Source: Actinomycetota bacterium (lineage in GTDB: Bacteria; Actinomycetota; UBA4738; HRBIN12). Taken from it: DNA of 64,000 bases. The stretch spans positions 6,101-70,100 of the forward strand of contig DASTPT010000094.1 in assembly GCA_035762085.1 (NCBI GenBank), given 5' to 3'. Both the position numbers and the translations under genes were made by a program. Under the pieces are notes generated by a model, which worked only from the letters and a program-made list of their open reading frames with translations, was not told the DNA's origin and did no database searches. Of the stretch, positions 20,825 to 60,609 are shown piece after piece. Positions within the stretch are counted from its first letter, which is position 1. The number at the start of each line of letters is the position of its first letter.

Positions 20825-22012
20825 TTGGTGACCATGGCCCTCAGCCCCAAGCAGCAGCGCGCGCTCACGAACGCGGCCGTGACCGCGGGACTGACGGCGC
20901 TCATCGGCCTGGTCGTCGGCCAGCTCGTGCCGGCGGAGCGCGAGGCCGCTGCCCCCGCCTCGCCCTCGCCGTCGCCGAGCCCCGCGGCCGCGTGCGCGCC
21001 GCGGTGGGAGCGCGTCGACAGCCCGGACCCCGAGGACGGCGGGAGCCTGCTCCTGGGCGTGGCCGCTGTCGGGCCCGACGACGGCTGGGCCGTGGGCGGC
21101 GCGGGTGACCCGGTCGACCCGACCGCGACCCTCGCGATCCAGTGGGACGGCGACGAGTGGGACGTGGTGCCGAGCCCGAACCCGGGCTCGACCGCGAACC
21201 GGTTCGAGGCCGTCGCGGCGCTCTCCCCGGACGCGGCGTGGGCGGTCGGGCGCGCCTCGGACGGGACGGACGACTACCCGATCGCCGCGCAGTGGGACGG
21301 CGGCGACTGGACGCTCCTGCCCCTCCCGCCGGAGCTGGCCGAGGGCGCGCTGATGGGGGTCGCGGCGATCCAGACCGACGACGTGTGGGCGGTCGGCTAC
21401 GAGGGCGACGTCGAGGCGGGCACGGAGCGCGCCGTCGCGCTGCGCTGGAACGGCGCCGAGTGGCGCTCGGCACCGGTGCTGCCGACGCTCGGCGGCGGAC
21501 GCACGGCCCTGCTCGCCGTGGCAGCCACCTCGCGCACGGACGCGTGGGCGGTGGGCTACCGGCGGAACCAGCCCGTGATCCTCCACTTCGACGGCCGTGC
21601 GTGGGCCCTGTCGATGAGCGAGGTCCCGGGCGACGTGCTCGGCGTGGCGGCGCTCGGGCCTCAGGAGGCGTGGGTGGTCGGCGAGCGCGTGCAGCGGTGG
21701 GACGGCACCGCCTGGTCCGAGACCGGCGCCGTGCGCTCGAAGGGCCTCCTGCGGGCGGTCTCGGCGGTCGGGACCGACGACGTCTGGGCGGTCGGCGACC
21801 GGCCCACCGAGGCCTCGATCCTGAAGCCGCTCGTGCAACGCTGGGACGGGAGCGGCTGGGAGGTCCTGCGCGGCCGGGGGGCCCCCGGGTCGATCAGCCT
21901 CACGGCCGTGAGCGCCGCCCGCGACGGCACGGTGATCGCCGTCGGGTACCGCGACGGCCCGCGGGGCCGTGCGACCTTCGCGATCAGCGGCACGACGTGC
22001 CCCGGTGCGTAG
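20825..22012 (+). CDS. membrane-anchored beta-propeller repeat protein (Ycf48-like / BNR-Asp-box-like)
   Basis: N-terminal TM helix and Pro/Ser linker. Seven repeats of roughly 45 aa with the recurring pattern (D/T)DxWAVG...(W/F)(D/N)GxxW, typical of Ycf48-like 7-bladed propellers. Confidence 0.55.
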   Translation: MVTMALSPKQQRALTNAAVTAGLTALIGLVVGQLVPAEREAAAPASPSPSPSPAAACAPRWERVDSPDPEDGGSLLLGVAAVGPDDGWAVGGAGDPVDPTATLAIQWDGDEWDVVPSPNPGSTANRFEAVAALSPDAAWAVGRASDGTDDYPIAAQWDGGDWTLLPLPPELAEGALMGVAAIQTDDVWAVGYEGDVEAGTERAVALRWNGAEWRSAPVLPTLGGGRTALLAVAATSRTDAWAVGYRRNQPVILHFDGRAWALSMSEVPGDVLGVAALGPQEAWVVGERVQRWDGTAWSETGAVRSKGLLRAVSAVGTDDVWAVGDRPTEASILKPLVQRWDGSGWEVLRGRGAPGSISLTAVSAARDGTVIAVGYRDGPRGRATFAISGTTCPGA

Positions 22013-26282: not shown

Positions 26283-26375
26283 CGCCCCTCCCCGTTCCTG
26301 CGCGGTCGGCTGCGCGCCGGCCGGCGCGAGCCTACACTCCGCCCCTGATCGCCGTTCGAGATGGGAGATCCGCGC

Positions 26376-27554
26376 ATGGACATCCGGCTGACCCCCGAGG
26401 ACGCAGGGCTGCAGGCGCGCGCCCGCGACTTCTGCGAGCAGGTGCTGATGCCGCTCGAGGACGAGTGCGAGGAGCGCGACGGCCTCACGCCCGAGAGCCT
26501 CGGGCGAGCCAGGGCCCAGGTGCTCGACCACGGCTTCGCGGCGATCAACCACGCGGTCGAGGACGGCGGGCAGGGACTCGACGTCTTCCAGCAGGTGCTC
26601 GTCGAAGAGGAGTGGGGCAAGGCGACCGGGGCCCTGTGGGACATCCCGTGGCGGCCCTCGATCCCGCTCGCGGTCGCGACCGAGGCGCAGAAGGACGAGT
26701 ACCTGCGGCCCGCGTGCCGCGGCGAGCGCCGCGACTGCTACGCGATCACCGAGGAGGGTGCCGGTTCCGACCCGTCGATGGTGCGCACGACGGCCGTCCG
26801 CGACGGCGACGGCTGGGTGCTGAACGGCACGAAGTGGCACGTGACCTCGGGCGACGTCGCCGACTTCCTCCTGGTCCACGCGCACGTGGACGGCGCCCCG
26901 GCGAAGGCAACGGTGTTCATCGTGGACAAGGACCTGCCCGGCGTGCGCGTGGTCCGCACGCCGAAGTACATGCACACGTTCGTGTTCGAGCACCCGATCA
27001 TCGCGCTCGAGGACGTCCGCGTCGGCCCGGACAAGGTCCTCGGCGAGGTCGGGCAGGGGTACGAGCTCACGAAGGACTGGTTCGTCGAGGAGCGGATCAT
27101 GATCGGCGCGCGGACGGTCGGGGCGGCGACCCGCGCGCTCGACCTCTCGCTCGCGTTCGCGTCGGAGCGGGTGCAGTTCGGCGTACCGATCGTCGAGCAC
27201 CAGGCGATCGCGTTCATGCTCGCCGACATGGCCGCCGAGCTCATGACCTCCAAGGCGATGCTCTACCGCGTCGCCTGGCAAGCCTCCCGCGGCGGTACGC
27301 CGCGCAAGGAGGTCCACGCCCTCGCGAGCGCCGTCAAGCTCGTGTGCCCGGAGACCGCGGGCCGGATCGTCGACAGGGCCGTTCAGATCCACGGCGGCCG
27401 TGGCTACATGCGCGAGCAGCCGGTCGAGCGCCTGTACCGGGAGCTTCGCGTGGACCGGATCTGGGAGGGCACCTCCGAGATCCAGCGCATGGTCGTCGCC
27501 AACGAGCTGCGGAAACGCGGCGCCGGCGCCTATACGGGCTGGCCCGGCGCGTAG
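26376..27554 (+). CDS. acyl-CoA dehydrogenase family protein (paralog 1)
   Basis: ACAD motifs CYAITEEGAGSD, LNGTKWHVTS, and C-terminal YRELRVDRIWEGTSEIQR. About 45% identical to the 40142..41320 gene. Confidence 0.85.
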   Translation: MDIRLTPEDAGLQARARDFCEQVLMPLEDECEERDGLTPESLGRARAQVLDHGFAAINHAVEDGGQGLDVFQQVLVEEEWGKATGALWDIPWRPSIPLAVATEAQKDEYLRPACRGERRDCYAITEEGAGSDPSMVRTTAVRDGDGWVLNGTKWHVTSGDVADFLLVHAHVDGAPAKATVFIVDKDLPGVRVVRTPKYMHTFVFEHPIIALEDVRVGPDKVLGEVGQGYELTKDWFVEERIMIGARTVGAATRALDLSLAFASERVQFGVPIVEHQAIAFMLADMAAELMTSKAMLYRVAWQASRGGTPRKEVHALASAVKLVCPETAGRIVDRAVQIHGGRGYMREQPVERLYRELRVDRIWEGTSEIQRMVVANELRKRGAGAYTGWPGA

Positions 27555-27600: not shown

Positions 27601-29007
27601 ATGCCGGGGGAACGCATGGGCATCTCGATCGAACGGCGAACGCTCGACGCCGAACGGACCGGCGAGGTTCGGAGTCACCCGCGGGTGGGCGTGATCCTGG
27701 CCGCCGGCCGTTCCAGCCGGCTGGCCGACGTCACCGGCCACGGGTCCAAGGCCGTGCTGCGGGTCGGCGGGATCTCGCTGCTCGAGCGCGCGATCCGCAC
27801 GCTGCTCGCGGCGCGGGTCGAGCGGGTGGTGGTCGTCGTCGGGCACCAGGCCGGGCCGGTGGCGACCGTGGCCCGGCGCTCGGCGCCGGGTCGCGTGCAG
27901 ACCGTGTACGCGGAGGGCTGGGAGCTCGGCAACGGCGTCTCGCTCGCGGCGGCCGAGCCGCTCGTCGCCGAGGAGGAGCTGTTCCTGCTCGTCACGGCCG
28001 ACCACGTCTTCGGCGAGGGCGCGCTCGAGCCGCTCGTGCATGCCGGTCGGCCCGGCGTGCTCGTGGACCACGCGCCCGACGCGGAGGCATGGGCCGAGGG
28101 CACCCGCGTCCGCCTCCACGAGGAGCACGCGGTCGCGTTCTCGAAGGAGCTCGGCGATCCGTCGATCGACTGCGGGGCGTTCCTCCTGCCGCCGGCCGTG
28201 TTCGCGGCGCACCGGCGGGCGCTCGCGAACCACGATGCCTCGCTCGCCGGCGCGGTGACGGGCCTGGCCCGCCACGTCCCGCTCGCCGCCGTGGCGCTGC
28301 CGCCCGGGACGTGGTGGCAGGACGTCGACACACCGCAGGACCTGCGACGGGTCTCGCGCCTGCTGCGCCGCTCGCTCACGAAGGACGCCGACGGTCCGGT
28401 CTCGCGGTACCTCAACCGCCCGGTCTCGACCCGGATCTCGATGGCGCTCGCGCACCTGCCGCTCCACCCCGACGTCGTCTCGGTGATCGCGTGCCTCGTC
28501 GCCCTCGCGGGGGCGTGGGCGCTGTGGGTCGGCCGTGGGGTCGAGGGCGCCCTGCTCGTGCTGCTCGCCTCGATCCTCGACGGCGTCGACGGCGAGATCG
28601 CCCGGCTCCAGGTGCGCGCGAGCCCAGGGGGTGCCCTGCTCGACGGCGTCCTGGACCGCGCCGCGGACGCCGCGGTGATCGCCGGCCTCATGGTGTGGGC
28701 GCTCGAGGACGGCGCCAGCGGCTCGGTCGCGGTCGGCTTGGGTGTCGCCGCGACCACCGGGTCGATGCTCTCGATGGCCACGAAGGACCGGATCGCGGCG
28801 CTCGGCATCCCCCCCGCCCCCGAGCGGTGGATCAGCTTCCTCATGGGCGGGCGCGACGCGCGCCTGCTCGAGATCGCGGTCTGCGCGGCGCTCGACCTGC
28901 CGGTGCTGGCCCTCGTGATCGTGGCGTCGACGTCGCTGCTCAGCCTCGGCGTGCGGCTGCTCCTCACCCGCTCGACGCTGCGCGGTGCCTGGCCCGGGCC
29001 GTCCTGA
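27601..29007 (+). CDS. bifunctional nucleotidyltransferase / CDP-alcohol phosphatidyltransferase (IPCT/DIPPS-like, di-myo-inositol-phosphate synthesis)
   Basis: N-terminal MobA-like NTP-transferase domain (GVILAAGRSSRL). C-terminal multi-TM domain with an exact CDP-OH-P-transferase motif D-G-x2-A-R-x8-G-x3-D-x3-D (DGEIARLQVRASPGGALLDGVLD). The alternative start is 27616. Confidence 0.7.
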   Translation: MPGERMGISIERRTLDAERTGEVRSHPRVGVILAAGRSSRLADVTGHGSKAVLRVGGISLLERAIRTLLAARVERVVVVVGHQAGPVATVARRSAPGRVQTVYAEGWELGNGVSLAAAEPLVAEEELFLLVTADHVFGEGALEPLVHAGRPGVLVDHAPDAEAWAEGTRVRLHEEHAVAFSKELGDPSIDCGAFLLPPAVFAAHRRALANHDASLAGAVTGLARHVPLAAVALPPGTWWQDVDTPQDLRRVSRLLRRSLTKDADGPVSRYLNRPVSTRISMALAHLPLHPDVVSVIACLVALAGAWALWVGRGVEGALLVLLASILDGVDGEIARLQVRASPGGALLDGVLDRAADAAVIAGLMVWALEDGASGSVAVGLGVAATTGSMLSMATKDRIAALGIPPAPERWISFLMGGRDARLLEIAVCAALDLPVLALVIVASTSLLSLGVRLLLTRSTLRGAWPGPS

Positions 29008-29056
29008 TGGCCGTCCTGACCGTGCCCGCACCATCCCGTTCGCAGGGGCGGCTCCG

Positions 29057-30016
29057 ATGAGCGTCGTGGTCGGCCTCGATGTCGGGGGCACGAAGATCCA
29101 GGCGGCGGCGCTCCGAGGCGAGGGGGTGGTGAGCTCGTTCCGCACCCCGACGCCGCTCACCGGCGCTCGCGACGTCCGGCGTGCGCTCGTCGAGGCGCTG
29201 GACGGGGCGCTCGGCGAGGCGGGCGCGGATCGGGGGGCGCTCGACGCGGTCGGGCTGGCGATGCCCGGCGCCGTCGATCGCCAGGCCGGCTCGCTCTGGA
29301 GCGCTCCGAACCTCCCCGGGTTCCAGTCGGCGACGCCGGTGCCGATCGGCCCCTCGCTGTCGAGGGCGCTCGACGGCGTCCCGGTCGCGCTCGGCAACGA
29401 TGCCAGCCTGGCCATGCTCGGCGAGCATCGGCGCGGAGCCGCCCGCGGCTACGGGAACGTGCTCGGCGTCTGGGTCGGGACGGGCGTCGGAGGCGGCCTG
29501 ATCCTGAACGGCGAGCTGTTCGAGGGTCACGGGGCCGCCGGCGAGATCGGCCACATGACCGTCGAGCCGGCCGGGAGGCTGTGCGGGTGCGGCGGACGGG
29601 GGCACCTCGAGTCCTACGCGGGCCGAGGGCGGATGGAGGCACGCGCCCGCGAGCTCGCGAAGAAGGGTCGCCGGACCACGCTGTTCAAGCTCCAGCAGAA
29701 GAAGGGTAAGGATCGCGTGACGAGCGGGGTCTGGCTCGAGGCGATGCGCAAGGGCGACCGCATCGCGAACATGCTCATCGACGAGGCCGTCTGGGCTCTC
29801 GGGCTCGCGCTCTCGTCGGTGCAGAACCTGCTCGACCTGGAGGCGATGGTGATCGGGGGCGGGCTCGGCGATCGGCTCGGGCAGCCCTTCATCGACCGGA
29901 TCGCGGCCGAGATGGCGCCGCTGCTGTTCGTCCCCGGCCGTCCGCCCGTGCCGCTGCCGACCGAGTTCAAGGACCTGTCCGGCGCGGTGGGCGCGGCGGT
30001 GCTCGCCGGCGGCTGA
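29057..30016 (+). CDS. ROK family sugar kinase (glucokinase-like)
   Basis: N-terminal VVGLDVGGTKIQAA ATP-binding motif and the ROK Cys/His zinc motif (HMTVEPAGRLCGCGGRGHLE). Confidence 0.85.
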   Translation: MSVVVGLDVGGTKIQAAALRGEGVVSSFRTPTPLTGARDVRRALVEALDGALGEAGADRGALDAVGLAMPGAVDRQAGSLWSAPNLPGFQSATPVPIGPSLSRALDGVPVALGNDASLAMLGEHRRGAARGYGNVLGVWVGTGVGGGLILNGELFEGHGAAGEIGHMTVEPAGRLCGCGGRGHLESYAGRGRMEARARELAKKGRRTTLFKLQQKKGKDRVTSGVWLEAMRKGDRIANMLIDEAVWALGLALSSVQNLLDLEAMVIGGGLGDRLGQPFIDRIAAEMAPLLFVPGRPPVPLPTEFKDLSGAVGAAVLAGG

Positions 30017-30019
30017 GCC

Positions 30020-30716
30020 CTACGTGCCGTCGAGGCAGCCGAGGACCTCCTCGGGCAGGCCGGGGATCCCGGGGCCGGGGGTGTCCGGACCCCCGCCGCC
30101 CCGGACGAAGTCGTACGGGACGCCCGCCCACCGGCCCGGAAGACCCGGGTAGGACCTCAGCTCCAGGTCGGCGCTGTCGTACTGGAAGGCGATCCAGTCG
30201 GGCGACCCGAAGCCCTCCGTGTCGTACGGCGCGACCGCCACGAGCCCGCGACCGAACCGGCGCGCCTCGATCAGGAACCGGCCCTGGAACCCGGGTTCCC
30301 GCTCGGCGAACAGCTTGATGTACCAGCGCTCGACCACGAGGAGGTATCCCTTGTCGGAGGGCGGCGACTCCGGACCCTCGAAGTACCGCATGTCGACGAC
30401 CGTGAGCGGTCCCTTCACGCCGGTCGCCCGCCGCACGATCCCGAGCGGCTGCAGGAACGCGGGCGAGCCGTCCTTCGGCGTGACCCAGCCGTTGACGCAG
30501 TCCGGCGTCGCCTCGCCGCGCGTAGGGGGCGGCTCCTCCGGCAACGCCGGCGGGGTGACGGAGGGCGTGACGCTCGAGGCCTCGGTCGGGGTCACGGGCG
30601 GGCGCGGCGTCGCCGTGGTCGGCCGATCGCCGTCCCCTCCTCCGTCGCACGCTGCGACCGTCGCGCCGAGCGCGAGGGCGACGACGATCGAGAGCGGCTG
30701 GAACCTACGCGATTGC
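30020..30716 (-). CDS. hypothetical secreted lipoprotein
   Basis: Putative GTG start giving a signal peptide plus lipobox (LALGATVAAC), a Pro/Thr-rich linker, then a globular domain. No recognisable family. The track ORF extends to 31045. Confidence 0.45.
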
Positions 30717-30785: not shown

Positions 30786-32273
30786 ATGGACGGCCCGCGC
30801 GACCACGCCCAGCGTCCCCACGGCCATCGGAACCCCGGGGTCGAGGCCGCCCCGACGTACCGGCGCCTGGAGCACGACCGCTCGCCGGGCCCGACGTTCT
30901 CGCGCCGGGGGTTCCTGGCCACGTCCGGGCTCGCGCTCGCCGGCGCGACGCTGTACGCGTGCACGGGCGGGGGGCGCAAGGGGCCGGTGGCCAGCCCCTC
31001 GGCGACGGTGTCCGTGGCGGCGACCCAGACGCGCTGGCCGATCAAGCGCGTGATCTACGTGATGCTCGAGAACCGGTCGTTCGACAACCTGTACGGGCGC
31101 TTCCCGGGCGCGAACGGCGCGAGGGTCGGGGTGAAGTTCGGACAGGAGGTGCCGCTCCTGGACTGCCCTCACTGGCTGCCCGGCGACATCCCGCACGACC
31201 GCGCGGCGCACCTCAACAACGTGAACGGCGGCGCCTACGACGGGTTCGCGATCGGGCAGTTCGGCGACCCGTGGGCGTACACGCAGTTCGACGGGCGGAT
31301 GGTCCCGAACTACTGGCGGTGGGCCCGCGACTACGTGCTGTGCGACAACTTCTTCGCCTCGGTCGGCGGTCCCTCCTACCCGAACCACTTCTTCTTCGTC
31401 GCGGGACAGTCCGGCGGCGTGCTCGACAACCCCGAGAACATCGAGGTGCGGTTCGACGACGGGAACGAGCGGTTCAAGTCGTGGGGCTGCGACGCCGTCG
31501 GCGAGAACGTGTTCGTGCTCGTCAAGGACGAGCAGGGGAACCTCGCGAAGCACGATACGTGCTTCAACTTCCGCACCGTGCCCGAGCAGCTCGAGGAGAT
31601 CGGCGTCTCGTGGGCGTACTACTCGGCCGGCAAGTACCAGACGGGCTACTTCTGGAACGCGCTGAACGGGATCTCGAACGTGTACCACACCGACCTGTGG
31701 CGCCCCGAACGGATCCGCGGCGTCGACAAGCTCGTCGACGACATCGAGGCGGGGCGCCTGCCCTCGGTCGCCTGGGTGACGCCGCGGTTCGAGCTCTCGG
31801 ACCACCCGCCGGAGAGCACGTGCTTCGCGCACGACTGGCTGACCGACGTCGTGAACGCGGTGATGAAGAGCGACGGCTGGGAGCACACCGCGTTGTTCGT
31901 CACGTGGGACGAGTGGGGAGGCTTCTACGACCACGTCCCGCCGCCCGAGATCGACGACGTCGGGCTCGGCTTCCGGGTGCCGACGCTCGTGATCAGCCCG
32001 TACGCGAAGAAGGGGTACGTCGACGACGCCGAGGGCGAGTTCTCGAGCCCGCTGAAGTTCATCGAGGACAACTGGGGACTGCCGTACCTCACCCCCCGGA
32101 TCGAGCGCACCCACAACTTCGAGCACGTCTTCGACTTCGACCGGGACCCTCGCACGGACGCCGAGCCCCTGCGCAAGCACGGCGGGTGTTACGGCACGCC
32201 GTGGGAGTTCCCCGGGGAGAACTATCCGGGCTGGCCGGCCGAGACCGAGCCCGACCCCAGCCACTTCGTCTGA
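30786..32273 (+). CDS. phosphoesterase family protein (phospholipase C / acid phosphatase AcpA-like), Tat-secreted
   Basis: Twin-arginine signal (SRRGFLATSGLALAGA). Phosphoesterase family conserved blocks (VMLENRSFDNLYG, GPSYPNHFFF, TWDEWGGFYDHV). Confidence 0.85.
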   Translation: MDGPRDHAQRPHGHRNPGVEAAPTYRRLEHDRSPGPTFSRRGFLATSGLALAGATLYACTGGGRKGPVASPSATVSVAATQTRWPIKRVIYVMLENRSFDNLYGRFPGANGARVGVKFGQEVPLLDCPHWLPGDIPHDRAAHLNNVNGGAYDGFAIGQFGDPWAYTQFDGRMVPNYWRWARDYVLCDNFFASVGGPSYPNHFFFVAGQSGGVLDNPENIEVRFDDGNERFKSWGCDAVGENVFVLVKDEQGNLAKHDTCFNFRTVPEQLEEIGVSWAYYSAGKYQTGYFWNALNGISNVYHTDLWRPERIRGVDKLVDDIEAGRLPSVAWVTPRFELSDHPPESTCFAHDWLTDVVNAVMKSDGWEHTALFVTWDEWGGFYDHVPPPEIDDVGLGFRVPTLVISPYAKKGYVDDAEGEFSSPLKFIEDNWGLPYLTPRIERTHNFEHVFDFDRDPRTDAEPLRKHGGCYGTPWEFPGENYPGWPAETEPDPSHFV

Positions 32274-32336
32274 CGCGCGATGCCGCGGGGGGCTTATCAC
32301 GCGTGGCCCACCCTCCTACACTCCCGCTCCGTGGAG

Positions 32337-35110
32337 ATGCGCAAGACGGTCTCGGTGCTGTTCGCCGATGTCACGGGCTCGACCTCCCTGGGCGAGCAGC
32401 TCGATCCCGAGTCCCTGCGCGCCGTGATGTCTCGCTACTTCGATGAGATGCGCCTGGTGATCGAGCGCCACGGCGGAACCGTCGAGAAGTTCATCGGCGA
32501 TGCGGTGATGGCGGTCTTCGGCGTGCCCGTCCTCCACGAGGACGACGCGCTCCGGGCGGTCAGGGCGGCGTGGGAGATGCGTGAGGCCCTCGCAGGGCTC
32601 AACGTCGAGCTCGGACGCGAGTGGGGCGCCACGCTGCGGATCAGGACGGGCGTGAACACCGGCGAGGTGGTGGCGGGAGACCCGGCGCGTTCCGAGACCC
32701 TCGTGAGCGGCGACGCGGTCAATGTTGCGGCTCGGTTCGAGCAGGCCGCGGAGCCCGGCGAGATCCTGATCGGGGAGGAGACCCATCGGCTCGTCCGCGA
32801 CGAGGTCACGGTCGAAGCCGTGGGGCCCTCGAGCTGAAGGGGAAGACGTCGGCCGTGTCCGCCTTCCGCGTGGTGGACGTGACCCGTGGAGCCCCCGGGC
32901 TCGCCCGGAGGCTCGACTCACCCCTGGTGGGCAGAGCGGAGGAGCTCGAGCGGCTCCGGCACGCCCTCGCCGATGCCGTGGCGCGCAGCACATGCCGCCT
33001 GGTGACGGTGGTCGGCGACGCCGGGATCGGCAAGACACGGCTGGTCGGCGAACTCGTCTCGACCGTCGACGGCGCCACGCGCACGCTGCGCGGGCGCTGC
33101 CTCCCGTACGGAGAGGGGATCACGTTCTGGCCGATCGCAGAGATCGTCAGGGAGGCGGCGGGCATCTTCGAGACGGACCCTCCCGACGTCGCAGGGTCGC
33201 GGATCCGGGACATCGTCGTCCAGAGCCGCGAGGAGGCTCTGGACGACATCGTGGATCCGGTCCTCGCGATCGCCGGAGCGGCCGAGGGCGCCGGCGATCT
33301 GCAGCAGACCTTCTGGGCCGTCCGACGGTTCCTCGAGTCCCTGGCCGGCGGGGGCGCGCTCATCGTGATCGTCGAGGACATCCACTGGGCGGAGCCCACG
33401 CTCCTCGACCTGCTCCAGTACGTCGCGGGGTTCAGCCATGGCTACCCCCTGCTCCTGTTGTGCACGGCGCGACCGGAGATCCGCGAGCTCAGGCCCGAGC
33501 CGATCGACGGTGCCGAGCTCGTGGTCCTTCAGCCGCTCAGCTAGCGCGAGAGCGACAGGTTGACCGCCAACCTGGGTCGGATCCCACCTCCAGACGCTGC
33601 TCCGGAAGGACCTGATCAGGCCGGACCGTTCCGGCTTCGCCGACGAGGATGCGTTCGCCTTCGGACACATCCTGATCCGCGACGCCGCGTACGGGTCGTT
33701 GGCCAAGCGCGAGCGGGCCGACCTGCACGAGCGGTTCGCGTCGTGGCTCGAGAACAAGGCCGGTGAACGGATCGCGGAGTTCGAGGAGATCGCCGGCTAT
33801 CACCTCGCGGAGGCGCACCGCTACCGCGCGGAGCTCGGTCCCATCGACGAGACCGCCAGGAGCGTCGCCGAGCGGGCGGCCGGGTACCTCTCGTCCGCGG
33901 GGCGGCGAGCCCTGGCTCGGTGGGACGTCGCCGCCGCCGCGAACCTCCTCTCGAGATCCGTCGAGCTCCTCCCGTCCCACGACGAGCGTCGCGTGTCGAT
34001 CCTGCCCGACCTCGGCCTCGCGCTCGCCCAGTTCGACCTCCACGCCGCCGACGAGGTGCTCGCCGAGGCCGTCGCGTCGGCCCATCGGATCGGTGCTCTC
34101 GGTATCGAGGGACGCGCCGCCGTACGACGCATCTTCGTGCGGCTGCACATCGACCCCGAGGAGGACCAACGAGCCTCGCTCGAGACGGCGGAGCGCTACG
34201 CGAGCCTGTTCGAGGCGCGGCGGGACGACCGGGGGGTCGCCGAGGCGAGGAATGCCGTCGGCACGATCCTCTTCTGGCAGGGCCAGATGAAGCTCGCCGC
34301 GGAGAGCCTCCAGCTGGCGGTGGACCACGCCCGGCGTGCCGGCGATCGTCGACAGGAGGCAGACAGTCTGCGCTGGCTCGCGCTCGTGATCCTGGAGGGC
34401 CCGACGCCCGTCGACGAAGGCCTGCGGCGCCTCGCGGACGTCCTCGATCGCCATCGCGGCGATCGACGGGTCCGGATCGACGTCGATCGGGTGCGAGCCC
34501 AGCTCGAGGCGATGCGAGGACGATCGGGGGAGGCCAGGCGTCTGATCGCCCGTGTCGAACACCTGGTCGGCGAGCTGAACGACCCCGTGACCCTCGGCGC
34601 AGTGCTCCGTCACGCCGGTCAGGTGGAGATGCTCGCCGGCGATGCCGAAGCGGCCGAGGCGGAGCTGCGCTCGGCGTACGACATCTACGACCGGCTGCGC
34701 GACACGGGACATCTGGCGAGCGTCGCACCGGATCTGGGCGACGCGTTGTACCGGCAGGGTCGGTTCGACGAGGCGTCGCACCTCGCGGAGGTGGGCGAAC
34801 GGAGCGTGACGCCCGGCGACCTCGATGCCGAGGTTCGGTGGCGGCAGCTCCGCGCCAAGCTCTGGGCCCGGACGGGTCGGGCCGAGGAGGGCGTGGCCCT
34901 CGCCGCGGACGCGGTCCGACTGGTTGCCGGCACGGAGTGCGACGACCTTCACGCCTCGCCCTCGTCGCGCTCGGGGAGACGCTCCGACTGGCCGGACACG
35001 GGTCGCAGGCCGAGACGTCGCTCCACGATGCGCTGTCCCTCTACCGGCGGAAGGGGAACGTGGCGGCCGCCACGAGGCTGATGGCGTCCATCGAGCGATC
35101 TGGATCCTGA
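32337..35110 (+). pseudogene. class III adenylate/guanylate cyclase - STAND/AAA ATPase - TPR regulator, disrupted by at least four frameshifts
   Basis: A continuous domain order is spread over abutting ORFs in different frames. Cyclase domain 32337..32837 (frame 0: VLFADVTGST, KFIGDAVMAVFG). P-loop NTPase 32821..33544 (frame 2: VVGDAGIGKTRL). Helical/TPR region 33564..about 34960 (frame 0). Tail to 35110 (frame 2). No start codons or RBS sit at the frame junctions. Confidence 0.65.
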
Positions 35111-35134: not shown

Positions 35135-37249
35135 TCAGGAACCGCGCGGGATCACGAGCGCGTCGACCGCAACGCACCCCTGTGGCCAGCAGACCACGGG
35201 GTTCGCGTCCAGCGCCTCGAGGTGATCGCCCAGCTCGTACGCGAGCCACGAGAGGCCGACGACCGCGCGGGCGAGCGCACCCACGTCCGCGGCCGGTGAG
35301 CCACGCACGCCGTCCAGCAGCGGGCGGATCCGGAGGCGTTCGATCATCCGGCGCGCCCGCACCTCGTCGAGGGGCGGGAGCGCGAGGCGCCGGTCGCGCA
35401 GGACCTCGACGAGCACGCCGCCGGCCGCGACGAGCACGAGCGGCCCGAACTCCGGATCGCGCACGATCCCGAGCGCGACCTCCACGCCCCTCGGCGCCAT
35501 CTTCGAGACCACGACCTCGGGACCGAGCAGCCGCTCGAGGTCCGAGTACGCGTCCTCGAGCGACGTCGAGTCGTCGATGCCGAGGCGCACCCCGCCGACG
35601 TCGGACTTGTGCTGCACCCCGGGGACCGCCGTCTTCACCGCCACGGCGAACCCCAGGCGCTGGGCCGCCGACATCGCGTCCTCGAGCGTCGCGGCCGCGA
35701 CGGCGTCCACCGTCGGAACCCCGTAGTCGGCCAAGAGCGCCAGCCCGTCGAGCTCGCCGAGCGGCACGCCGCTCGTCAGCCGCTCTCGCCATCGGACGCG
35801 TACGTCGTCCGACACGGGGGACGAGCCCCCGACCGGCGGCAGCGCCCGGTGGTCCCGGTGGTCGAACAGGTGCCGGAACGCGGCCAGGCCGGTCAGCGTC
35901 CCCTCGAGCGCCGGCGCGCCGGCCGCGTGGATCCTCGCCACGTCCGTGCGATCGATGCCGCCGGCGAAGTTGCTCAACATCGCCATCGGCTTGCCCGTCT
36001 CGGGCCACACGTCGAGGAAGCAGGAGAAATAGCCTTCCTCGTCGGCGTCGTCGGTCACCAGGTCGACCGCGAACGCGAGCGCCGCGACGTTCGGGTCCTG
36101 CACGAGCGCGCGGAGCGAGCCCGTGATCACCTCGCCGGCGTCGCGCCCGGTCCCCCAGAAGTCGAGCGGGTTGATCGGCAGCAGGCCCTCGTCGAGGAGC
36201 GCGTCGAGCTTCGCGGTGGCCTCGGGCCCGAGGGTCGCGAGCGGCACACCTACGGCCGCGGCCGCGTCGACCATCATCGCCCGCTCGCCGCCCGAGTCGT
36301 GGGCGGTCGCGAGCGCGCCCGGCCCCGCGCGACGTCCCGCGACGAACAGCGCGAGCGTGTCGGCCATCTCGTCGAGCGACTCGACGCGGTGCACCCCCTC
36401 GGCCTCGAACAGGGCCTCGTAGGCGCCGTCCTCACCCGCGAGCGCGCCGGAGTGCGCCGTCACCATCTCGCGCGTGAACGCCTCGCGTCCGACCTTCAGG
36501 ACCACGACCGGCACGTCGCGCTCGTGCGCCGAACGCATCGCGGCGCGGAAGCCGGCCGGGTCACGGACCGTCTCGATGAACAGTCCGATCGCCTCCGTGC
36601 TTTCCAGCCCGAGCGCGTACGCCATGTAGTCCGACGTCGTGGTCACGAACTCCTGTCCGGACGAGACGAGCAGGTTGAACCGCAGATCACGGTCGTTGTG
36701 CATGAACGCCGCGAATGCCGACCCCGAGTGGCTCACGAACGTGATGCCGCCGCTCGGCAGCTCGGCCGGCTCCTCCCACCCGGTCGCGCGCAGGCGGCGC
36801 TCCACGTTCACGAACCCCATGCAGTTGCCGCCGCAGATCGCCATGCCCGCCTCCCGCGCGACCTGGGCCAGGCGCTCGGTAAGGGGCGGCGCGTCGGGGC
36901 GGGGTTCCTCGAACCCGCTCGCGTAGATCACCGCCGAGCCGACCCCTGCGTCGGCGCACGCGCGCAGCGTCTCCTCGAGCTGAGCGTTCGCGAGCGCGAT
37001 CACCGCCAGGTCCACCGGCTCGGGCACCTCGTCGATCGAGCCGTAGCACCGGTGCCCCAACAACTCGTCGTACCGCGGGTTCACCGGGTATACCGGCCCC
37101 TCGAACCGCCCGAGCTCGACCAGCTCGCGCAGCGTCTCGTGGCCGACCGTGCCCTCCCGCCCACTCGCGCCGATGATCGCGACCGAACGCGCCTCGAGCA
37201 TCCGCTCGAGCGCGGATCGGCCGTGCGGGTCCGCCTGCGGTGCCGTCAC
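35135..37249 (-). CDS. acetyl-CoA synthetase (ADP-forming) / NDP-forming acyl-CoA synthetase, fused alpha-beta (paralog 1)
   Basis: 704 aa. N-terminal CoA-binding and succinyl-CoA-synthetase-like domains (SVAIIGASGREG, catalytic His region SHSGSAF) and a C-terminal ATP-grasp domain. Confidence 0.85.
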   Translation of the reverse strand: MTAPQADPHGRSALERMLEARSVAIIGASGREGTVGHETLRELVELGRFEGPVYPVNPRYDELLGHRCYGSIDEVPEPVDLAVIALANAQLEETLRACADAGVGSAVIYASGFEEPRPDAPPLTERLAQVAREAGMAICGGNCMGFVNVERRLRATGWEEPAELPSGGITFVSHSGSAFAAFMHNDRDLRFNLLVSSGQEFVTTTSDYMAYALGLESTEAIGLFIETVRDPAGFRAAMRSAHERDVPVVVLKVGREAFTREMVTAHSGALAGEDGAYEALFEAEGVHRVESLDEMADTLALFVAGRRAGPGALATAHDSGGERAMMVDAAAAVGVPLATLGPEATAKLDALLDEGLLPINPLDFWGTGRDAGEVITGSLRALVQDPNVAALAFAVDLVTDDADEEGYFSCFLDVWPETGKPMAMLSNFAGGIDRTDVARIHAAGAPALEGTLTGLAAFRHLFDHRDHRALPPVGGSSPVSDDVRVRWRERLTSGVPLGELDGLALLADYGVPTVDAVAAATLEDAMSAAQRLGFAVAVKTAVPGVQHKSDVGGVRLGIDDSTSLEDAYSDLERLLGPEVVVSKMAPRGVEVALGIVRDPEFGPLVLVAAGGVLVEVLRDRRLALPPLDEVRARRMIERLRIRPLLDGVRGSPAADVGALARAVVGLSWLAYELGDHLEALDANPVVCWPQGCVAVDALVIPRGS

Positions 37250-37259
37250 GTGCCCGAGG

Positions 37260-38879
37260 CTACTTCCTCTTCGGCAGGGCCTTGTCCTTCACGGCCATGC
37301 GGAACGCCTGCCAGCCGGGGATGCCGTTCACGCCGCCGCCTCCGTGCGTGGCGCACGAGCCGTGGTACAGCCCCCTGATCGGGGTGCGGAAGTCCGCGTA
37401 TCCGGGCGCCGGACGCATGTGGAACAGCTGGTCCACCGCGAGCTCGCCGTGGAAGATGTTCCCGCCGATCAGGCCGAGCTCCTGCTCCATCTCGTACGGC
37501 CCGATGATCTGCCGGTCGATGACGGCCGACTTGAAGTTCGGCGCGAGGGTGTTGTACTCCTCGATCGCGCGGTCGGCGTACGCCTCGAGCTCCTCGGTGT
37601 GCGGCTCGGCGCTCCACTCGTGCGGGCACCACTGGCTGTACATCGAGAAGATGTGGATCCCCTCGGGACACAGCTTCTTGTCGAGCGTCGTCGGGATGAC
37701 GCCGTCGACGAAGGGCCGCGTCGCCGCCTTCTTCTCCATGTGCGCGTCCTGGAACGCGCGCTCCGCGTAGTCCGTCGAGAAACACAGCTCGACCGACCCG
37801 GTGTGGTGGTCCTGCATCTCCTTGCCCGGATCGGCCGTGAAGTCCGGCAGCTCCGAGAGCGCGACGTTGATCTTCACGACGCCGGAGCGGCTCCGCCAGC
37901 GCTCGATGTCCCAGACGAAGTCGGCCGGCAGGTCGTACCGGTCGATGAGGTCGAGGAACGCGGTCCTCGGGTGGATCGCCGAAACGCCGATCGGCGCGCG
38001 CAGCTCCTCACCGTTCTCGAGCGCCACGCCGACGAACCGTCCGTTGCGCACGAGGATCTTCGAGACCTTCGCGTTCGTGCGGATCTCGCAGCCGAACGAC
38101 TCGGCCGATCGGCGGATCGAGTCCGACACGGCGCCCATGCCGCCCTGCTGGAACCCCCACGACCCGAGGTGGCCGTCGCCGACGTCGCCGATCGAGTGGT
38201 GGAGCATCACGTAGGCGGTGCCCGCCTCGTCCGGCCCGGCCCACGTCCCGATCACGCCGTTCACCGCGAGCATGCCCTTGATCGGGTCGGACTCGAACCA
38301 CTCGTCGAGCAGGTCGGTGACGCTCATCGTGAACAGCTTCGTGACGCTGCCCACGCCCCGGACACCGAGCTTGCGCATCTTCCATGCCGTCTCGACGGTC
38401 GACAGCAGGTCGCCGAGCGCCATCGAGCCCATCTTCGGCGGCACCCGCAGCAGCAGCGGCCCGAGGACGTCGGCGACGCCCTTCAGCCACTCCTCCCACT
38501 TCGGGAGTATCTCGGCGTCCTTCTTCGAGAACTGCGCGATCGACTCGTAGGACTTCGCGGCGTCGTCCGCGTAGACCTTGATCGAGCGCCCGTCCGGGAA
38601 CGCCTGGTAGTACGGCCCGAACGGCGTGACGTCGTAGCCGAACCGTTTGAGCTGCAGCTCGTTGATGATCGTCGGCGGCATCAGCGACATCACGTACGAG
38701 TAGGTCGTGACCTGAATCTCGGGGTGGTCGGGGAACGGCGCGCTGGTGTCGGCCGCGCCGCCGGTCTTGTGACGCGCCTCGAGCACGACGGCCCGGGCGC
38801 CGGCCCTCGCGAAGTAGGCGCCCGCCGTGAGCCCGTTGTGCCCGCCGCCGATGATGATCGCGTCGTAGACGTTCGTCAT
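37260..38879 (-). CDS. FAD-dependent oxidoreductase of the phytoene-desaturase / amine-oxidase superfamily (CrtI-like)
   Basis: 539 aa. N-terminal Rossmann motif YDAIIIGGGHNGLTAGAYFARAG...VLE, with the size and layout of COG1233 flavoproteins. Confidence 0.8.
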   Translation of the reverse strand: MTNVYDAIIIGGGHNGLTAGAYFARAGARAVVLEARHKTGGAADTSAPFPDHPEIQVTTYSYVMSLMPPTIINELQLKRFGYDVTPFGPYYQAFPDGRSIKVYADDAAKSYESIAQFSKKDAEILPKWEEWLKGVADVLGPLLLRVPPKMGSMALGDLLSTVETAWKMRKLGVRGVGSVTKLFTMSVTDLLDEWFESDPIKGMLAVNGVIGTWAGPDEAGTAYVMLHHSIGDVGDGHLGSWGFQQGGMGAVSDSIRRSAESFGCEIRTNAKVSKILVRNGRFVGVALENGEELRAPIGVSAIHPRTAFLDLIDRYDLPADFVWDIERWRSRSGVVKINVALSELPDFTADPGKEMQDHHTGSVELCFSTDYAERAFQDAHMEKKAATRPFVDGVIPTTLDKKLCPEGIHIFSMYSQWCPHEWSAEPHTEELEAYADRAIEEYNTLAPNFKSAVIDRQIIGPYEMEQELGLIGGNIFHGELAVDQLFHMRPAPGYADFRTPIRGLYHGSCATHGGGGVNGIPGWQAFRMAVKDKALPKRK

Positions 38880-39683: not shown

Positions 39684-40130
39684 TCAGCGGGCCCCACCCA
39701 CGAACGCGCGCAGGCCCGGCAGGTGCTCCTCGTAGTGGTCGATCGTCTCCCAGACGAACTCCTGCTCGGCGGCGGCATCGACCTCGGGGAGCGCGGCCCA
39801 GGCGGCGAGCATCCGCTCGCGGGCCTCGTTCAGGCCACGCTCGACGTCCGCGAGGCTTATCCGTCCCGACTCCTCGAGCACCCGGGCGTTCTCGGCGTCC
39901 GTCGCCTCGTCGTCCTCGGGCGGCGGGACGTACGTCCCCGCCCGCATCGCTTCGAGCGTGCCCGCGAGATCGTCCCACCAGTGCGCGACGTGCCACAGCA
40001 CGTCCTTGACCGTCCACCCCTCCACGTTCACGCCCGGCGTCTCGCGACGGGCCGGCTCGATGGCGTCCACGGCCTCGCGGAACGCCGCCCACGCCGCCCG
40101 CTCCCGAGCGCCTAGCTCCTGCTCGTCCAT
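39684..40130 (-). CDS. DinB/ClbS-like four-helix-bundle family protein (DUF1706-like)
   Basis: 148 aa from the ATG at 40130 (MDEQELGARERAAWAAF...WTVKDVLWHVAHWWDD...ETIDHYEEH). The N-terminal 158 aa of the track ORF are an Arg-rich artefact. Confidence 0.5.
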   Translation of the reverse strand: MDEQELGARERAAWAAFREAVDAIEPARRETPGVNVEGWTVKDVLWHVAHWWDDLAGTLEAMRAGTYVPPPEDDEATDAENARVLEESGRISLADVERGLNEARERMLAAWAALPEVDAAAEQEFVWETIDHYEEHLPGLRAFVGGAR

Positions 40131-40141
40131 CTCCGACCTCC

Positions 40142-41320
40142 TCATCCCGCCAGCGTGCGGACCCCACGTTTCGCGAGCTGATCGGCGACGATGTTCCGTT
40201 GGATCTCGGAGGTCCCTTCCCAGATCCGGTCCACGCGGAGCTCGCGATAGAACCGCTCGGCCACGTTCTCGCGCATGTAGCCGCGGCCCCCGAACACCTG
40301 GACCGCGCGGTCGGCGACACGGTTCGCCATCTCGCTCGCGTACAGCTTCGCCATCGAGCACTGCGCGTGCTGGACCTTCACGTCGACGCCTCGGTCGATG
40401 TTCTTCGCGAGCTCGTACGTCATCAGACGCGCCGCCCACAGCTCCGTGAGCGAGTCCGCGAGCATGTGCCCGATCGCCTGGAACCGGATGATCGGCTCCT
40501 CGAACTGCACCCGGTCCCTCGCGAACGCGGTCGCCTCCTCGATCAGGCGCTCGGCGGCACCGCAGCAACGGGCCGCGATCATCAGCCGCTCGTACCGGAA
40601 CCACGCGTACGTGAAGTCCAGGCCGTCGCCCTCCTCGCCGACCATGCTCGTGGCGGGGACCCGCACGTCGTCGAAGCGGACGATCGCGTGGCTGTCGGCG
40701 TACGTGTGCGAGTACGCGGGCTCGCGCACCAGGTGCACACCCGGCGTGTCCTTGTCCACGAAGAACATCGCGTGCTCGCCCGCGTGGGGCCCGCCGTCGA
40801 TCTTGCCCTGGAAGAAGAGGTAGTCGGCCGTGTTGTACGAGGTCACGTGCATCTTCGTGCCGTTCAGCACGTACGCGTCGCCGTCGCGTCGGGCGGTGGC
40901 CTGGATCGCGTCGACGTCCGAGCCCGCGCCGGCCTCAGTGATCGCGTAGCACTCCTGCCGCTCGCCGCGGATCGTCGGCACGATCCAGCGCTCGAGCTGC
41001 TCGGGCGTGACGACCTCGGGCGCCCAGGCCGGCGGCGTGTGGACGCACCAGCCGAGCGCGTTCGTCACCCGCCCGATCTGCTCGGAGACCAGGACCTGCT
41101 GGAACATCGTGAAGCCGCCGCCGCCCAGCTCCCTCGGCATGTTCATCGCGAACAGGCCGAGGTCGATCGCCGAGCGGTGGTGCCGCTCGCGCGCCTCGTC
41201 GGGGATCCGGCCGCCGTGCTCCTCGGCGTGGTTCTCCCAGGGGATCAGCTCCTCGTCGACGAACCGCCGAGCGGTCTCCTGGATCCTCCGATCCTCCTCC
41301 GTCATCGGGTACGTGCTCAT
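40142..41320 (-). CDS. acyl-CoA dehydrogenase family protein (paralog 2)
   Basis: CYAITEAGAGSD, LNGTKMHVTS, and C-terminal YRELRVDRIWEGTSEIQR. Confidence 0.9.
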   Translation of the reverse strand: MSTYPMTEEDRRIQETARRFVDEELIPWENHAEEHGGRIPDEARERHHRSAIDLGLFAMNMPRELGGGGFTMFQQVLVSEQIGRVTNALGWCVHTPPAWAPEVVTPEQLERWIVPTIRGERQECYAITEAGAGSDVDAIQATARRDGDAYVLNGTKMHVTSYNTADYLFFQGKIDGGPHAGEHAMFFVDKDTPGVHLVREPAYSHTYADSHAIVRFDDVRVPATSMVGEEGDGLDFTYAWFRYERLMIAARCCGAAERLIEEATAFARDRVQFEEPIIRFQAIGHMLADSLTELWAARLMTYELAKNIDRGVDVKVQHAQCSMAKLYASEMANRVADRAVQVFGGRGYMRENVAERFYRELRVDRIWEGTSEIQRNIVADQLAKRGVRTLAG

Positions 41321-41352
41321 CCGGCCACCTCCGGCGCGAGCATACGCCGGAG

Positions 41353-41368
41353 CTGAACGACGGTTCAG
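41353..41368. promoter_or_regulatory. perfect palindrome CTGAAC-GACG-GTTCAG upstream of the acyl-CoA dehydrogenase gene (operator-like)
   Basis: Read directly, in the 55-nt gap between the cysK-like stop and the ACAD start. It belongs to the TGAAC-N4-GTTCA motif family seen at 38926, 38995, 46361 and 50944. Confidence 0.45.
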
Positions 41369-41375
41369 ACGCGAC

Positions 41376-60492: not shown

Positions 60493-60541
60493 GGGCCGTA
60501 CCCCCCTCTGTCCGCTCGAGGCGGACTCCGCCCCCGAGTCG

Positions 60542-60564: not shown

Positions 60565-60609
60565 TAGGCGGGGCGTCAACCCACGACGCCGCGGGGAGAG
60601 GACGGGCGC

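Follow-up and report, generated by a model that had tools for sequence, protein, structure and literature searches.

[quoted passage not shown]

According to our analysis of a 64,000-nucleotide stretch of DNA from an uncultured member of the Actinomycetota (hereafter, the window), a fused gene near its middle is a new member of the known IPCT/DIPPS family. [quoted passage not shown] The cytoplasmic N-terminal domain would form CDP-inositol from CTP and L-myo-inositol-1-phosphate, and the six-helix membrane C-terminal domain, with its Asp-rich metal site, would transfer phospho-inositol onto a hydroxyl of a phosphorylated second molecule, most likely another inositol-1-phosphate, to give DIPP. 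A separate phosphatase would then convert DIPP to DIP, and an ino1 gene at another place in the genome would supply the inositol-1-phosphate. Since the named relatives of the host lineage are mostly soil MAGs, a role of DIP in soil, against osmotic stress, desiccation or heat pulses, would be more plausible than one in high-temperature life.

The first-pass annotation of the window had described a MobA-like nucleotidyltransferase fused to a membrane CDP-alcohol phosphatidyltransferase domain, and profile searches confirmed this layout: Pfam NTP_transf_3 (residues 30–150, E 1.2e-16) and CDP-OH_P_transf (residues 289–384, E 1.2e-8) were both found above their gathering scores. The two domains lie in one polypeptide, covered by a single AF2 model (pTM 0.90, pLDDT 93) with helices at residues 266–283, 290–309, 313–336, 342–369, 374–400, 418–430 and 434–463. 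Translation from an alternative ATG at 27601, with the same end at 29007 on the plus strand, would give a product of 468 aa; ATG 27616 is the likelier start, because a Shine-Dalgarno-like GGGGGAA stands immediately 5' of it and the nearest homologues are 463 aa long. Residues are nevertheless numbered here from ATG 27601 (the 468-aa form). An Rfam scan returned no match. The gene and its parts are as follows:

27616..29007, plus strand: fused IPCT/DIPPS-family gene, 463 aa (open reading frame, Pfam domains, match to 4MND, ribosome-binding-site-like run)
27682..28374, plus strand: predicted cytoplasmic IPCT-like nucleotidyltransferase domain, residues ~28–258, with G36-x-x-x-R40, K50 and D134-H135
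28387..28989, plus strand: membrane DIPPS-like CDP-alcohol phosphotransferase domain, residues ~263–463, with a juxtamembrane helix and six transmembrane (TM) helices
28579..28656, plus strand: catalytic signature D327xxD330G331xxA334R335-x8-G344-x3-D348-x3-D352, read from the translation
28852..28863, plus strand: R418-D419-A420-R421 (RxxR), predicted acceptor-phosphate ligand, from alignment to PIP synthases
28954..28956, plus strand: R452, near the end of TM6, predicted second acceptor-phosphate ligand, from alignment to PIP synthases

The assignment to the IPCT/DIPPS family, likewise proposed at first pass, stood. The A. fulgidus IPCT/DIPPS (AF0263; PDB 4MND) was the best full-length match in phmmer (E 8e-39, residues 30–452) and with the family profile (397 bits), and it was the top Foldseek match of the AF2 model (E 1e-22, TM 0.66/0.74). 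Both proteins have the same domain order and length, the same catalytic signature and nucleotidyltransferase residues, and the same juxtamembrane helix and six-TM fold, at ~30% full-length identity. The window protein differs in its host, a high-GC uncultured actinobacterium, in several clade-specific substitutions, in carrying Lys at the K135-equivalent position where A. fulgidus DIPPS has Ser, and in belonging to a separate, well-supported subclade without linkage to ino1 or IMPase. It scored 190 bits against the NCBIfam IPCT/DIPPS equivalog NF041135, below the cut-off of 580, as is expected for a bacterial homologue because that model is Thermococcales-specific; the scores against NF045883 (PIPS; 60 bits, cut-off 170) and NF040950 (AIPS; 70 bits, cut-off 180) were also below cut-off.

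With the N-domain family profile, the solved IPCTs of A. fulgidus (2XME) and T. maritima (4JD0) scored 199 and 158 bits, versus 86 bits or less for other nucleotidyltransferases (LicC, 67), and the target-normalised Foldseek TM-scores against the two IPCTs were 0.86–0.89. The T. maritima enzyme has a homologous domain (TM-score 0.86) with the R, K and D kept, but it is a stand-alone soluble protein of a hyperthermophile and is 24% identical to the window N-domain. The C-domain profile scored 240 bits on A. fulgidus AF2299 (PDB 4O6M) and ~197 on the DIPPS part of 4MND, as against 72–90 on PIP synthases, so that the domain groups with DIPPS/AF2299 and stands farther from PI-phosphate, PGP and PS synthases. 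The grouping with phosphatidylinositol or phosphatidylglycerophosphate synthases that would have refuted the first-pass reading was not seen. Homology cannot tell DIPPS from AF2299 for this domain. AF2299 shares the DGxDGEIAR, RDxR and SR..NR..S motifs, whereas its N-terminal domain fails the nucleotidyltransferase profile (1 bit) and that of the window protein is intact. To our knowledge, no physiological substrates have been identified for this CDP-alcohol phosphotransferase. The PIP synthases of R. salmoninarum (5D92) and M. tuberculosis (PgsA1, 6H53) have the six-TM CDP-AP fold, the signature and, as predicted by alignment, the same Arg/Arg/Lys acceptor-phosphate ligands, but they are without a fused cytidylyltransferase; their donor is CDP-diacylglycerol, seated in a lipid groove (Clarke 2015).

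The exact D-G-x2-A-R-x8-G-x3-D-x3-D motif reported earlier is present, as is the full D1xxD2GxxAR...GxxxD3xxxD4 signature, which reads D327-G-V-D330-G331-E-I-A334-R335-(LQVRASPG)-G344-(ALL)-D348-(GVL)-D352. No substitution occurs at any of the eight signature residues across 120 close homologues or across 72 diverse family members, and their invariance in the 120 shows that the signature is no chance pattern. The same 120 sequences keep R40, K50 and D134, which align with the R, K and D of 4JD0; the latter are taken to be R16/K26/D112 quoted in the CpgD paper, our source for residue roles together with Clarke 2015. Conservation reaches at least 98% at 142 of the 468 positions among these orthologues, and of the 58 columns whose conservation in the remaining family is 80% or more, the window protein is identical at 50 (86%). 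The catalytic residues are thus intact and the conservation is purifying. Clade-specific changes adjoin the N-domain active-site motifs GxGxR, DH and GK (G38S, M132T, G181S), and the TM2 position Q321, which is Q in 84% of other family members, varies in the window clade.

On the acceptor side, the aligned counterpart of the RxxR motif is RSER in R. salmoninarum PIPS and ERPER (R152/R155) in the M. tuberculosis enzyme, and D419 and R421 are invariant across the family. R452, which does not vary among the 120 close homologues or within the 13-member clade, lies at a family consensus 'rR' whose aligned residues are the R of RsPIPS 'FQR' and MtPIPS R195. K395, like these, aligns with a phosphate ligand of the inositol-1-phosphate site in PIP synthases, where R153/R155 contact the phosphate of inositol-phosphate (Clarke 2015).

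In the full-length tree, from which partial sequences were removed before the 99% clade was recovered, the window protein falls in a subclade of 13 representatives (bootstrap 99/100), and deeper nodes reach 31% or less. The only characterised enzymes in this tree are those of A. fulgidus. A neighbour-joining tree of the C-domain alone placed the window clade outside the DIPPS and AF2299 group, a branching that was dropped because the bootstrap for the split was only 1%. Relatives at 51–91% identity occur in very large numbers in metagenomes and among uncultured MAGs, many of them soil-named. More than 100 protein clusters from these sources lie at 68–90% identity, and public metagenomes hold hundreds of related clusters, some with more than 200 member sequences; the cluster members of 20 family representatives are nearly all metagenome proteins. 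Among GTDB species representatives, 12 true relatives were found, each an uncultured MAG; 11 carry the label Actinomycetota, Actinobacteria or Actinomycetes, and SMAG (soil catalogue) names occur in seven of these 11. When plasmids were searched by tblastn for annotated homologues, the search retrieved only an unrelated Sphingomonas CDP-alcohol transferase.

Some family members are fused to HAD or DUF4202/HD phosphatase-type domains, as one would expect were the transferase product to require dephosphorylation. Within the clade of the window protein, P0123 (51% identical) is fused to an LPG_synthase_TM membrane domain, and one locus of the window subfamily carries a catalytically dead tandem copy.

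The absence of an inositol-1-phosphate synthase gene from the window, stated in the earlier annotation, was upheld: none of ~55 open reading frames matched Inos-1-P_synth/NAD_binding_5, and tblastn of the window with three ino1 proteins and one IMPase returned nothing. No ino1 or IMPase gene lies near the fusion gene in any of the 94 window-clade loci compared, nor in the separately sampled sister loci L016–L022. By contrast, four of five sampled distant family members (34–36% identity where measured; P0289 was not measured) have ino1 directly upstream on the same strand, once together with IMPase. The ino1 linkage may be ancestral in the family and lost in the window subfamily. A DinB/MDMPI_N (mycothiol-type) gene at 39684–40145 hints weakly that inositol-1-phosphate is made by the organism in any case. 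Downstream of the fusion gene lie the following:

29008..29056, plus strand: spacer of 49 nt separating the fusion gene from the ROK gene
29057..30016, plus strand: glucokinase-like ROK-family sugar kinase, 319 aa (Pfam ROK, E 3.6e-47), a variable neighbour
30020..30700, minus strand: lipoprotein-like conserved hypothetical, start uncertain, adjoining the fusion gene in the synteny block
30786..32273, plus strand: PF04185 phosphoesterase (phospholipase C / acid phosphatase family; Pfam E 2.2e-66), a syntenic neighbour

The hypothetical gene at 30020..30700 matched no Pfam or NCBIfam family. The PF04185 protein, whose matches to NCBIfam acid_phos_Burk and PC_PLC are below cut-off, has a Tat-like SRRGFL motif and a lipobox-like LYAC and is, to judge by these signals, probably exported; the Tat/lipoprotein-type signal rules it out as the DIPP phosphatase. 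No candidate cytoplasmic DIPP phosphatase was found near the fusion gene, and a search for other recurrent neighbours across the 94 loci returned only the known synteny block.

We consider it possible, though unlikely, that the enzyme makes CDP-inositol and passes phospho-inositol to some other acceptor, a lipid alcohol or a soluble phospho-alcohol such as glycerol phosphate, so that no DIP is formed. CDP-inositol-dependent lipid synthesis exists in bacteria: in Rhodothermus marinus, an IPCT-like enzyme makes CDP-inositol for a CDP-alcohol phosphotransferase, the ether-lipid synthase BEPIS, encoded in an IPS-IPCT-BEPIS operon, and an alternative inositol-lipid pathway with CDP-inositol use has been proposed for the NTP-transferase, CDP-alcohol transferase and HAD cluster of Bacteroides/Prevotella. 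An LPG_synthase_TM gene, the domain fused in P0123, lies near both Bacteroidetes inositol-lipid clusters; the C-domain is as near to AF2299 as to DIPPS, and the clade-wide absence of ino1 linkage and the variable Q321 position point the same way. However, the BEPIS pathway and the Bacteroides/Prevotella cluster are set apart by their descriptions as separate genes in an ino1 operon with a lipid acceptor, and the separate-gene IPS-IPCT-BEPIS layout is absent at the window locus. BEPIS homologues reportedly occur only in Sphingobacteria and Alphaproteobacteria. The predicted acceptor pocket keeps the phosphate-binding Arg pair and Lys of PIP synthases, and the AF2 model has six TM helices with no additional C-terminal ones, a layout that goes with soluble acceptors (Clarke 2015).

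The neighbouring ROK gene bears on the remaining alternatives. Its likeliest start is ATG 29057, with AGGGG ~11 nt 5' of it, and a terminator and promoter scan of the 49-nt spacer found no such site; the arrangement suggests that the gene is probably co-transcribed with the fusion gene here. The protein carries DVGGTK, GNDAS, GEIGH and CGCGGRGHLE (DxGxT, GNDA, ExGH and the Zn motif), its best PDB matches are the glucokinases 2QM1, 3VOV and 3VGK, and it scores 155 bits against the NCBIfam glucokinase model TIGR00744 (cut-off 260). Seventy-two related loci extend far enough downstream to be informative; a ROK gene follows directly in only 15 of them, always within one synteny block, and is absent in 79%. 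P0124 (46% identical to the window protein) also adjoins a ROK gene, whose product is 28% identical to the window ROK protein; this low identity and the 15/72 adjacency speak against ROK as a conserved partner. The first-pass placement of the kinase ~50 bp downstream is accurate, whereas its suggested supply of glucose-6-phosphate is possible but weak, without conserved linkage. The ROK kinase is a lineage-specific neighbour and no obligatory partner.

A tentative proposal, and in our view an improbable one, is that the window protein belongs to a distinct actinobacterial subfamily that no longer makes DIP, its product being another inositol or sugar phosphodiester that would serve as a soil solute or as an envelope or lipid head group. 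The subfamily itself is well supported (99/100) and very common in metagenomes; a loss of DIP synthesis would fit the ino1 linkage missing from all 94 loci, the changes adjacent to the active site, the relaxed TM2 position, the ROK neighbours of two sublineages, the LPG-synthase-type fusion and the dead tandem copy. In that case the ROK enzyme might serve for salvage, phosphorylating myo-inositol for instance, much like the PfkB-type inositol kinase in the DIP gene cluster of Thermococcus.

It is more doubtful still that the N-domain activates another phospho-alcohol, possibly the ROK product, from which the C-domain builds a different, so far undescribed phosphodiester. IPCT-like cytidylyltransferases (~24% identity) with other substrates do exist, such as CpgD (phosphoglycerate), LicC and the phosphoglutamine enzymes, and show the substrate variety of this fold. 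The ~30% identity to A. fulgidus IPCT/DIPPS, the clade-specific changes beside the N-domain motifs and the non-canonical ROK kinases downstream in two sublineages would also agree with such a shift. On the other hand, the family profile separates IPCTs cleanly from other nucleotidyltransferases, most family-conserved positions are kept, and ROK is missing from the majority of informative loci. ROK kinases typically phosphorylate hexose C6, and we know of no case in which a hexose C6 phosphate is a substrate type of the IPCT/DIPPS transferase family.

The heliorhodopsin (2–808), MMPL (57796–60924) and luciferase-like monooxygenase (56791–57729; first described as F420-LLM) genes listed at first pass were all confirmed in the window, which has a GC content of 67–77%. 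The thermophilic, Rubrobacteria-like lineage deduced at that stage was not borne out, given that the relatives are uncultured MAGs, many from soil, and more than 100 metagenome and MAG clusters. DIP is classically a solute of (hyper)thermophiles, and it accumulates in Rubrobacter species, which likewise belong to the Actinomycetota; reports of IPCT/DIPPS homologues, however, extend to cold hadal Thaumarchaeota and to Atribacteria, so that the gene is an unreliable marker of thermophily. Across 43 window proteins the IVYWREL fraction is 0.417, nominally ~56 C, an estimate that we judge unreliable because the high GC (72%) and many membrane proteins of this sample inflate the index. That the gene marks a thermophilic Rubrobacteria-like organism, with the glucokinase-like and probably co-transcribed ROK kinase as dedicated glucose-6-phosphate supplier for inositol-1-phosphate synthase, is very unlikely in the light of the soil MAG and metagenome relatives, the cold-habitat homologues, the inflated composition index, the confinement of ROK adjacency to one synteny block and the lack of any taxonomic marker in the window placing it in Rubrobacteria.

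In conclusion, DIP has so far been treated as a signature of hot, mostly marine habitats, and an IPCT/DIPPS gene alone is no basis for inferring thermophily of a genome fragment. If the enzyme makes DIP, the pathway would be carried by a common soil lineage of Actinomycetota, and the ecological meaning of this solute would widen to protection from drought, osmotic stress or heat pulses in ordinary soils, adding to what hadal Thaumarchaeota and Atribacteria had already hinted at. If the product of the subclade differs, the gene would open the way to an unknown phosphodiester metabolite of soil bacteria.

The fusion gene of the window encodes 468 aa when read from the ATG at 27601, from which residues are numbered here. 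The ATG at 27616 is more likely to be the actual start, because a ribosome-binding-like run (GGGGGAA) lies just upstream of it and it gives 463 aa, the length of the closest homologues. The gene and its domains are as follows:

27601-29007, + strand: open reading frame of the fusion gene
Residues 30-150 of its product: MobA-like nucleotidyltransferase domain (Pfam, E 1.2e-16)
Residues 289-384 of its product: CDP-alcohol phosphatidyltransferase domain (Pfam, E 1.2e-8)

Both domains of the fusion proposed in the first-pass annotation were thus detected, and the D-G-x2-A-R-x8-G-x3-D-x3-D motif described there is exact in the translation, as D327-G-V-D330-G331-E-I-A334-R335, x8, G344, x3, D348, x3, D352. 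Every signature residue, together with R40, K50, and D134 of the nucleotidyltransferase, is kept in all 120 close homologues, among which 142 of the 468 positions are conserved at 98% or more. These invariant catalytic residues and the extent of conservation show that the gene is real and under purifying selection.

The best full-length solved relative of the protein is 4MND, the IPCT/DIPPS of A. fulgidus (phmmer E 8.2e-39, residues 30-452). The IPCT/DIPPS equivalog NF041135 was the top NCBIfam model; the 190 bits obtained lie below its cut-off of 580, but this model is specific to Thermococcales. A profile built from 72 diverse two-domain relatives scored 397 bits with 4MND. Its N-terminal half gave 199 bits with the IPCT 2XME (A. 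fulgidus) and 158 bits with 4JD0 (T. maritima), and at most 86 with all other nucleotidyltransferases (LicC, 67). For the membrane half, the scores were 240 bits with AF2299 (PDB 4O6M), about 197 with the DIPPS part of 4MND, and 72–90 with the PIP synthases; the assignment therefore survives the possibility that the C-terminal domain groups with phosphatidylinositol or phosphatidylglycerophosphate synthases. The AlphaFold2 model (pLDDT 93, pTM 0.90) has six transmembrane helices preceded by a juxtamembrane helix, without additional C-terminal helices. In a Foldseek search of the PDB, it retrieved 4MND first (E 1.2e-22, TM 0.66/0.74, 30% identity), followed by AF2299, the PIP synthases, and the two IPCTs (target-normalised TM 0.86–0.89). 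The original observation is confirmed and the assignment to the IPCT/DIPPS family is sound; judging by JGI protein names, public pipelines already attach this label to such proteins automatically. The membrane domain of AF2299 outscores that of 4MND on the family profile, while its N-terminal domain scores almost nothing; AF2299 looks like a derivative of the IPCT/DIPPS family with a degenerate cytidylyltransferase domain.

A library of 50%-identity representatives contained 236 relatives at E <1e-30. Of the 58 columns with at least 80% conservation across the other family members, the window protein is identical at 50; the differing columns include G38S, M132T, and G181S, beside motifs of the N-terminal domain. 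At one position in TM2, 84% of the other members carry Q, and the residue is variable in the clade of the window. Among five sampled distant members, four (P0201, P0174, P0139, and P0289) have a PF01658 inositol-1-phosphate synthase gene directly upstream in the same orientation; in one case an IMPase gene lies between the two. This context ties the family overall to inositol-1-phosphate. Six relatives (P0160, P0161, P0182, P0190, P0202, and P0237), several of them 35–42% identical to the window protein, bear a third, C-terminal HAD phosphatase domain, and a DUF4202/HD domain is fused in three others (P0156, P0249, and P0186). Fusions to phosphatase-type domains fit a transferase whose product, like DIPP, needs to be dephosphorylated, and they could represent the long-missing DIPP phosphatase step.

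In PIP synthases, the phosphate of the acceptor inositol-1-phosphate is bound by two arginines (R153/R191 in RsPIPS and R155/R195 in MtPIPS), with contributions from S132 and K135, and soluble acceptors are associated with six-helix CDP-alcohol phosphotransferases, while extra helices belong to enzymes with lipid acceptors (Clarke et al., 2015). By transitive alignment, R418-D-A-R421 of the window protein was matched to RSER/ERPER of the PIP synthases, R452 to R191/R195, and K395 to K135; across the entire family, D419 and R421 do not vary, and R452 is invariant within the clade of the window. The aligned phosphate-binding residues (R418/R421, R452, and K395) indicate a predicted acceptor that is phosphorylated, soluble, and of the inositol-1-phosphate type. 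[quoted passage not shown] Transfer of CDP-inositol to another acceptor has precedents in the IPS-IPCT-BEPIS pathway of Rhodothermus and in a proposed alternative cluster of Bacteroides, and would agree with the LPG_synthase_TM domain fused in P0123 (51% identity, the sole such case) and with a C-terminal domain equally similar to AF2299; the retention of the predicted phosphate-binding pocket and the six-helix layout speak against it, and we consider it unlikely. That the N-terminal domain activates a phospho-alcohol other than inositol-1-phosphate is more improbable still: CpgD, 24% identical to the T. maritima IPCT, is known from the literature to use phosphoglycerate, but the profile scores cleanly separate IPCTs from other nucleotidyltransferases.

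For the genomic context, 94 loci of the same clade (51–91% identity) from GTDB species representatives and JGI/NCBI metagenome contigs were compared. A single synteny block recurs. It begins with an acyl-CoA dehydrogenase gene, continues with the fusion gene and, in some loci, ROK, and ends with an oppositely oriented hypothetical lipoprotein gene and the PF04185 phosphoesterase. The genes around the fusion gene include:

20825-22012, + strand: conserved hypothetical protein of ~395 aa between the amidase and AMP-ligase genes, with no Pfam/NCBIfam family, syntenic in relatives
29057-30016, + strand: ROK gene (Pfam ROK E 3.6e-47), its most plausible start being the ATG at 29057, after AGGGG
30020-30700, - strand: conserved hypothetical, lipoprotein-like, adjoining the ROK gene, with no Pfam/NCBIfam family, syntenic in relatives
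30786-32273, + strand: PF04185 phosphoesterase with Tat/lipobox-like signals, conserved in the synteny block
32280-32837, + strand: adenylate/guanylate cyclase domain
32621-33544, + strand: AAA_16 ATPase domain, in a frame different from that of the cyclase domain
33564-35081, + strand: TPR region, in the frame of the cyclase domain
2-808, + strand: heliorhodopsin (Pfam E 5.8e-96), beginning at the very edge of the window

The ROK product has intact motifs. Its best relatives of solved structure are glucokinases (2QM1, E 4.7e-40; 3VOV; 3VGK), and it scores 155 bits with the NCBIfam ROK-glucokinase model, below the cut-off of 260. Co-transcription with the fusion gene, as initially suggested, is plausible, since the 49-nt spacer contains no terminator-like site, whereas the reading of the kinase as a pathway partner is weak. 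Where 1 kb or more of sequence is available downstream of the fusion gene (72 loci), ROK follows immediately 3' in 15 cases, each time within the synteny block, and the block lacks it in L001, L004, L005, and L010. At P0124 (46% identity), a different ROK gene follows in an unrelated context (28% identical to that of the window; TIGR00744, 112 bits). We regard ROK as a neighbour particular to certain lineages; it may play a supporting part, though no conserved linkage points to one. Two more PF04185 genes (L016, 1-151 and 1123-2982) lie 7–10 kb upstream of P0124 in an unrelated context, and this recurrence may be a coincidence or a loose functional association.

The domains between 32280 and 35081 look like one large regulator gene whose frame is interrupted twice, and they may represent a pseudogene or reflect an error of assembly; in the closest relatives, L003 and L029, this ~2.8-kb segment is missing and the phosphoesterase is directly followed by an ADP-forming acyl-CoA synthetase. 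Acyl-CoA genes were noted at 35135-37288 (-), 43384-45519 (-), 26361-27554 (+), and 40142-41695 (-). They comprise a pair of ADP-forming acyl-CoA synthetase paralogues and a pair of acyl-CoA dehydrogenases, and the window also holds genes for an amidase, an AMP-ligase, and an enoyl-CoA hydratase. This richness in acyl-CoA metabolism is unrelated to the fusion gene.

GTDB species representatives yielded 12 true matches, every one an uncultured MAG. Eleven bear the label Actinomycetota, Actinobacteria, or Actinomycetes, seven of them with names of the SMAG catalogue, which derives from 3304 soil metagenomes. The twelfth, a 74%-identical copy on a 2-kb contig labelled Thermoanaerobaculia (L011, DASWIG010000495.1), is probably a binning error and not a real transfer. 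Metagenomes and MAGs are likewise the source of the best 120 protein clusters (68–90% identity). DIP is accumulated by Rubrobacter species, and Gaiella occulta has been reported without DIP genes; IPCT/DIPPS homologues have earlier been described from Atribacteria living in methane-hydrate sediments and from Thaumarchaeota of cold hadal habitats, the latter with transcripts at about 2 °C. With uncultured and often soil-named relatives, homologues in cold habitats, and no rRNA, tRNA, or other marker for class-level placement in the window, the proposed thermophilic, Rubrobacteria-like origin is unsupported, and the thermophily reading is weak. Over 43 window proteins, the IVYWREL fraction (0.417; nominally an optimum of ~56 °C by the Zeldovich relation) and the charged-minus-polar bias (0.078) exceed our expectation for a typical high-GC mesophile, but high GC content and the many membrane proteins confound both values and inflate the IVYWREL index, and its temperature estimate is nominal. 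A DinB/MDMPI_N gene of the mycothiol maleylpyruvate isomerase N-terminal type (39684-40145, - strand) hints weakly at a use of mycothiol by the organism, and mycothiol in turn needs inositol-1-phosphate.

In full-length neighbour-joining trees, the window protein falls in a clade of 13 representatives (36–89% identity, bootstrap 99/100); deeper nodes have support of at most 31%, and a tree of the C-terminal domain alone resolved nothing. At P0126 (46% identity; L018, tandem copies at 2-994 and 1053-2423), a second copy of the fusion gene lies just upstream. The signature of this second copy is degenerate (LGGVDGESAR...N...N, with D1, D3, and D4 replaced), and it is probably an inactive paralogue. 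Neither ino1 nor IMPase genes were found near the fusion gene in any of the 94 compared loci, at five members sampled from the wider 13-representative clade or from its sister groups (P0124, P0126, P0142, P0140, and P0123), or in the window, in agreement with the initial remark that it holds no inositol-1-phosphate synthase gene. As no neighbour recurs outside the synteny block in the 94 loci either, the fusion gene essentially stands alone. A self-sufficient bifunctional enzyme supplied by ino1 elsewhere in the genome would fit this arrangement, which also leaves room for an altered function. The metagenome scan gave at least 310 confirmed relatives. The window protein belongs to a distinct actinobacterial subclade, abundant in metagenomes and so far unstudied, that includes many soil-named MAGs.
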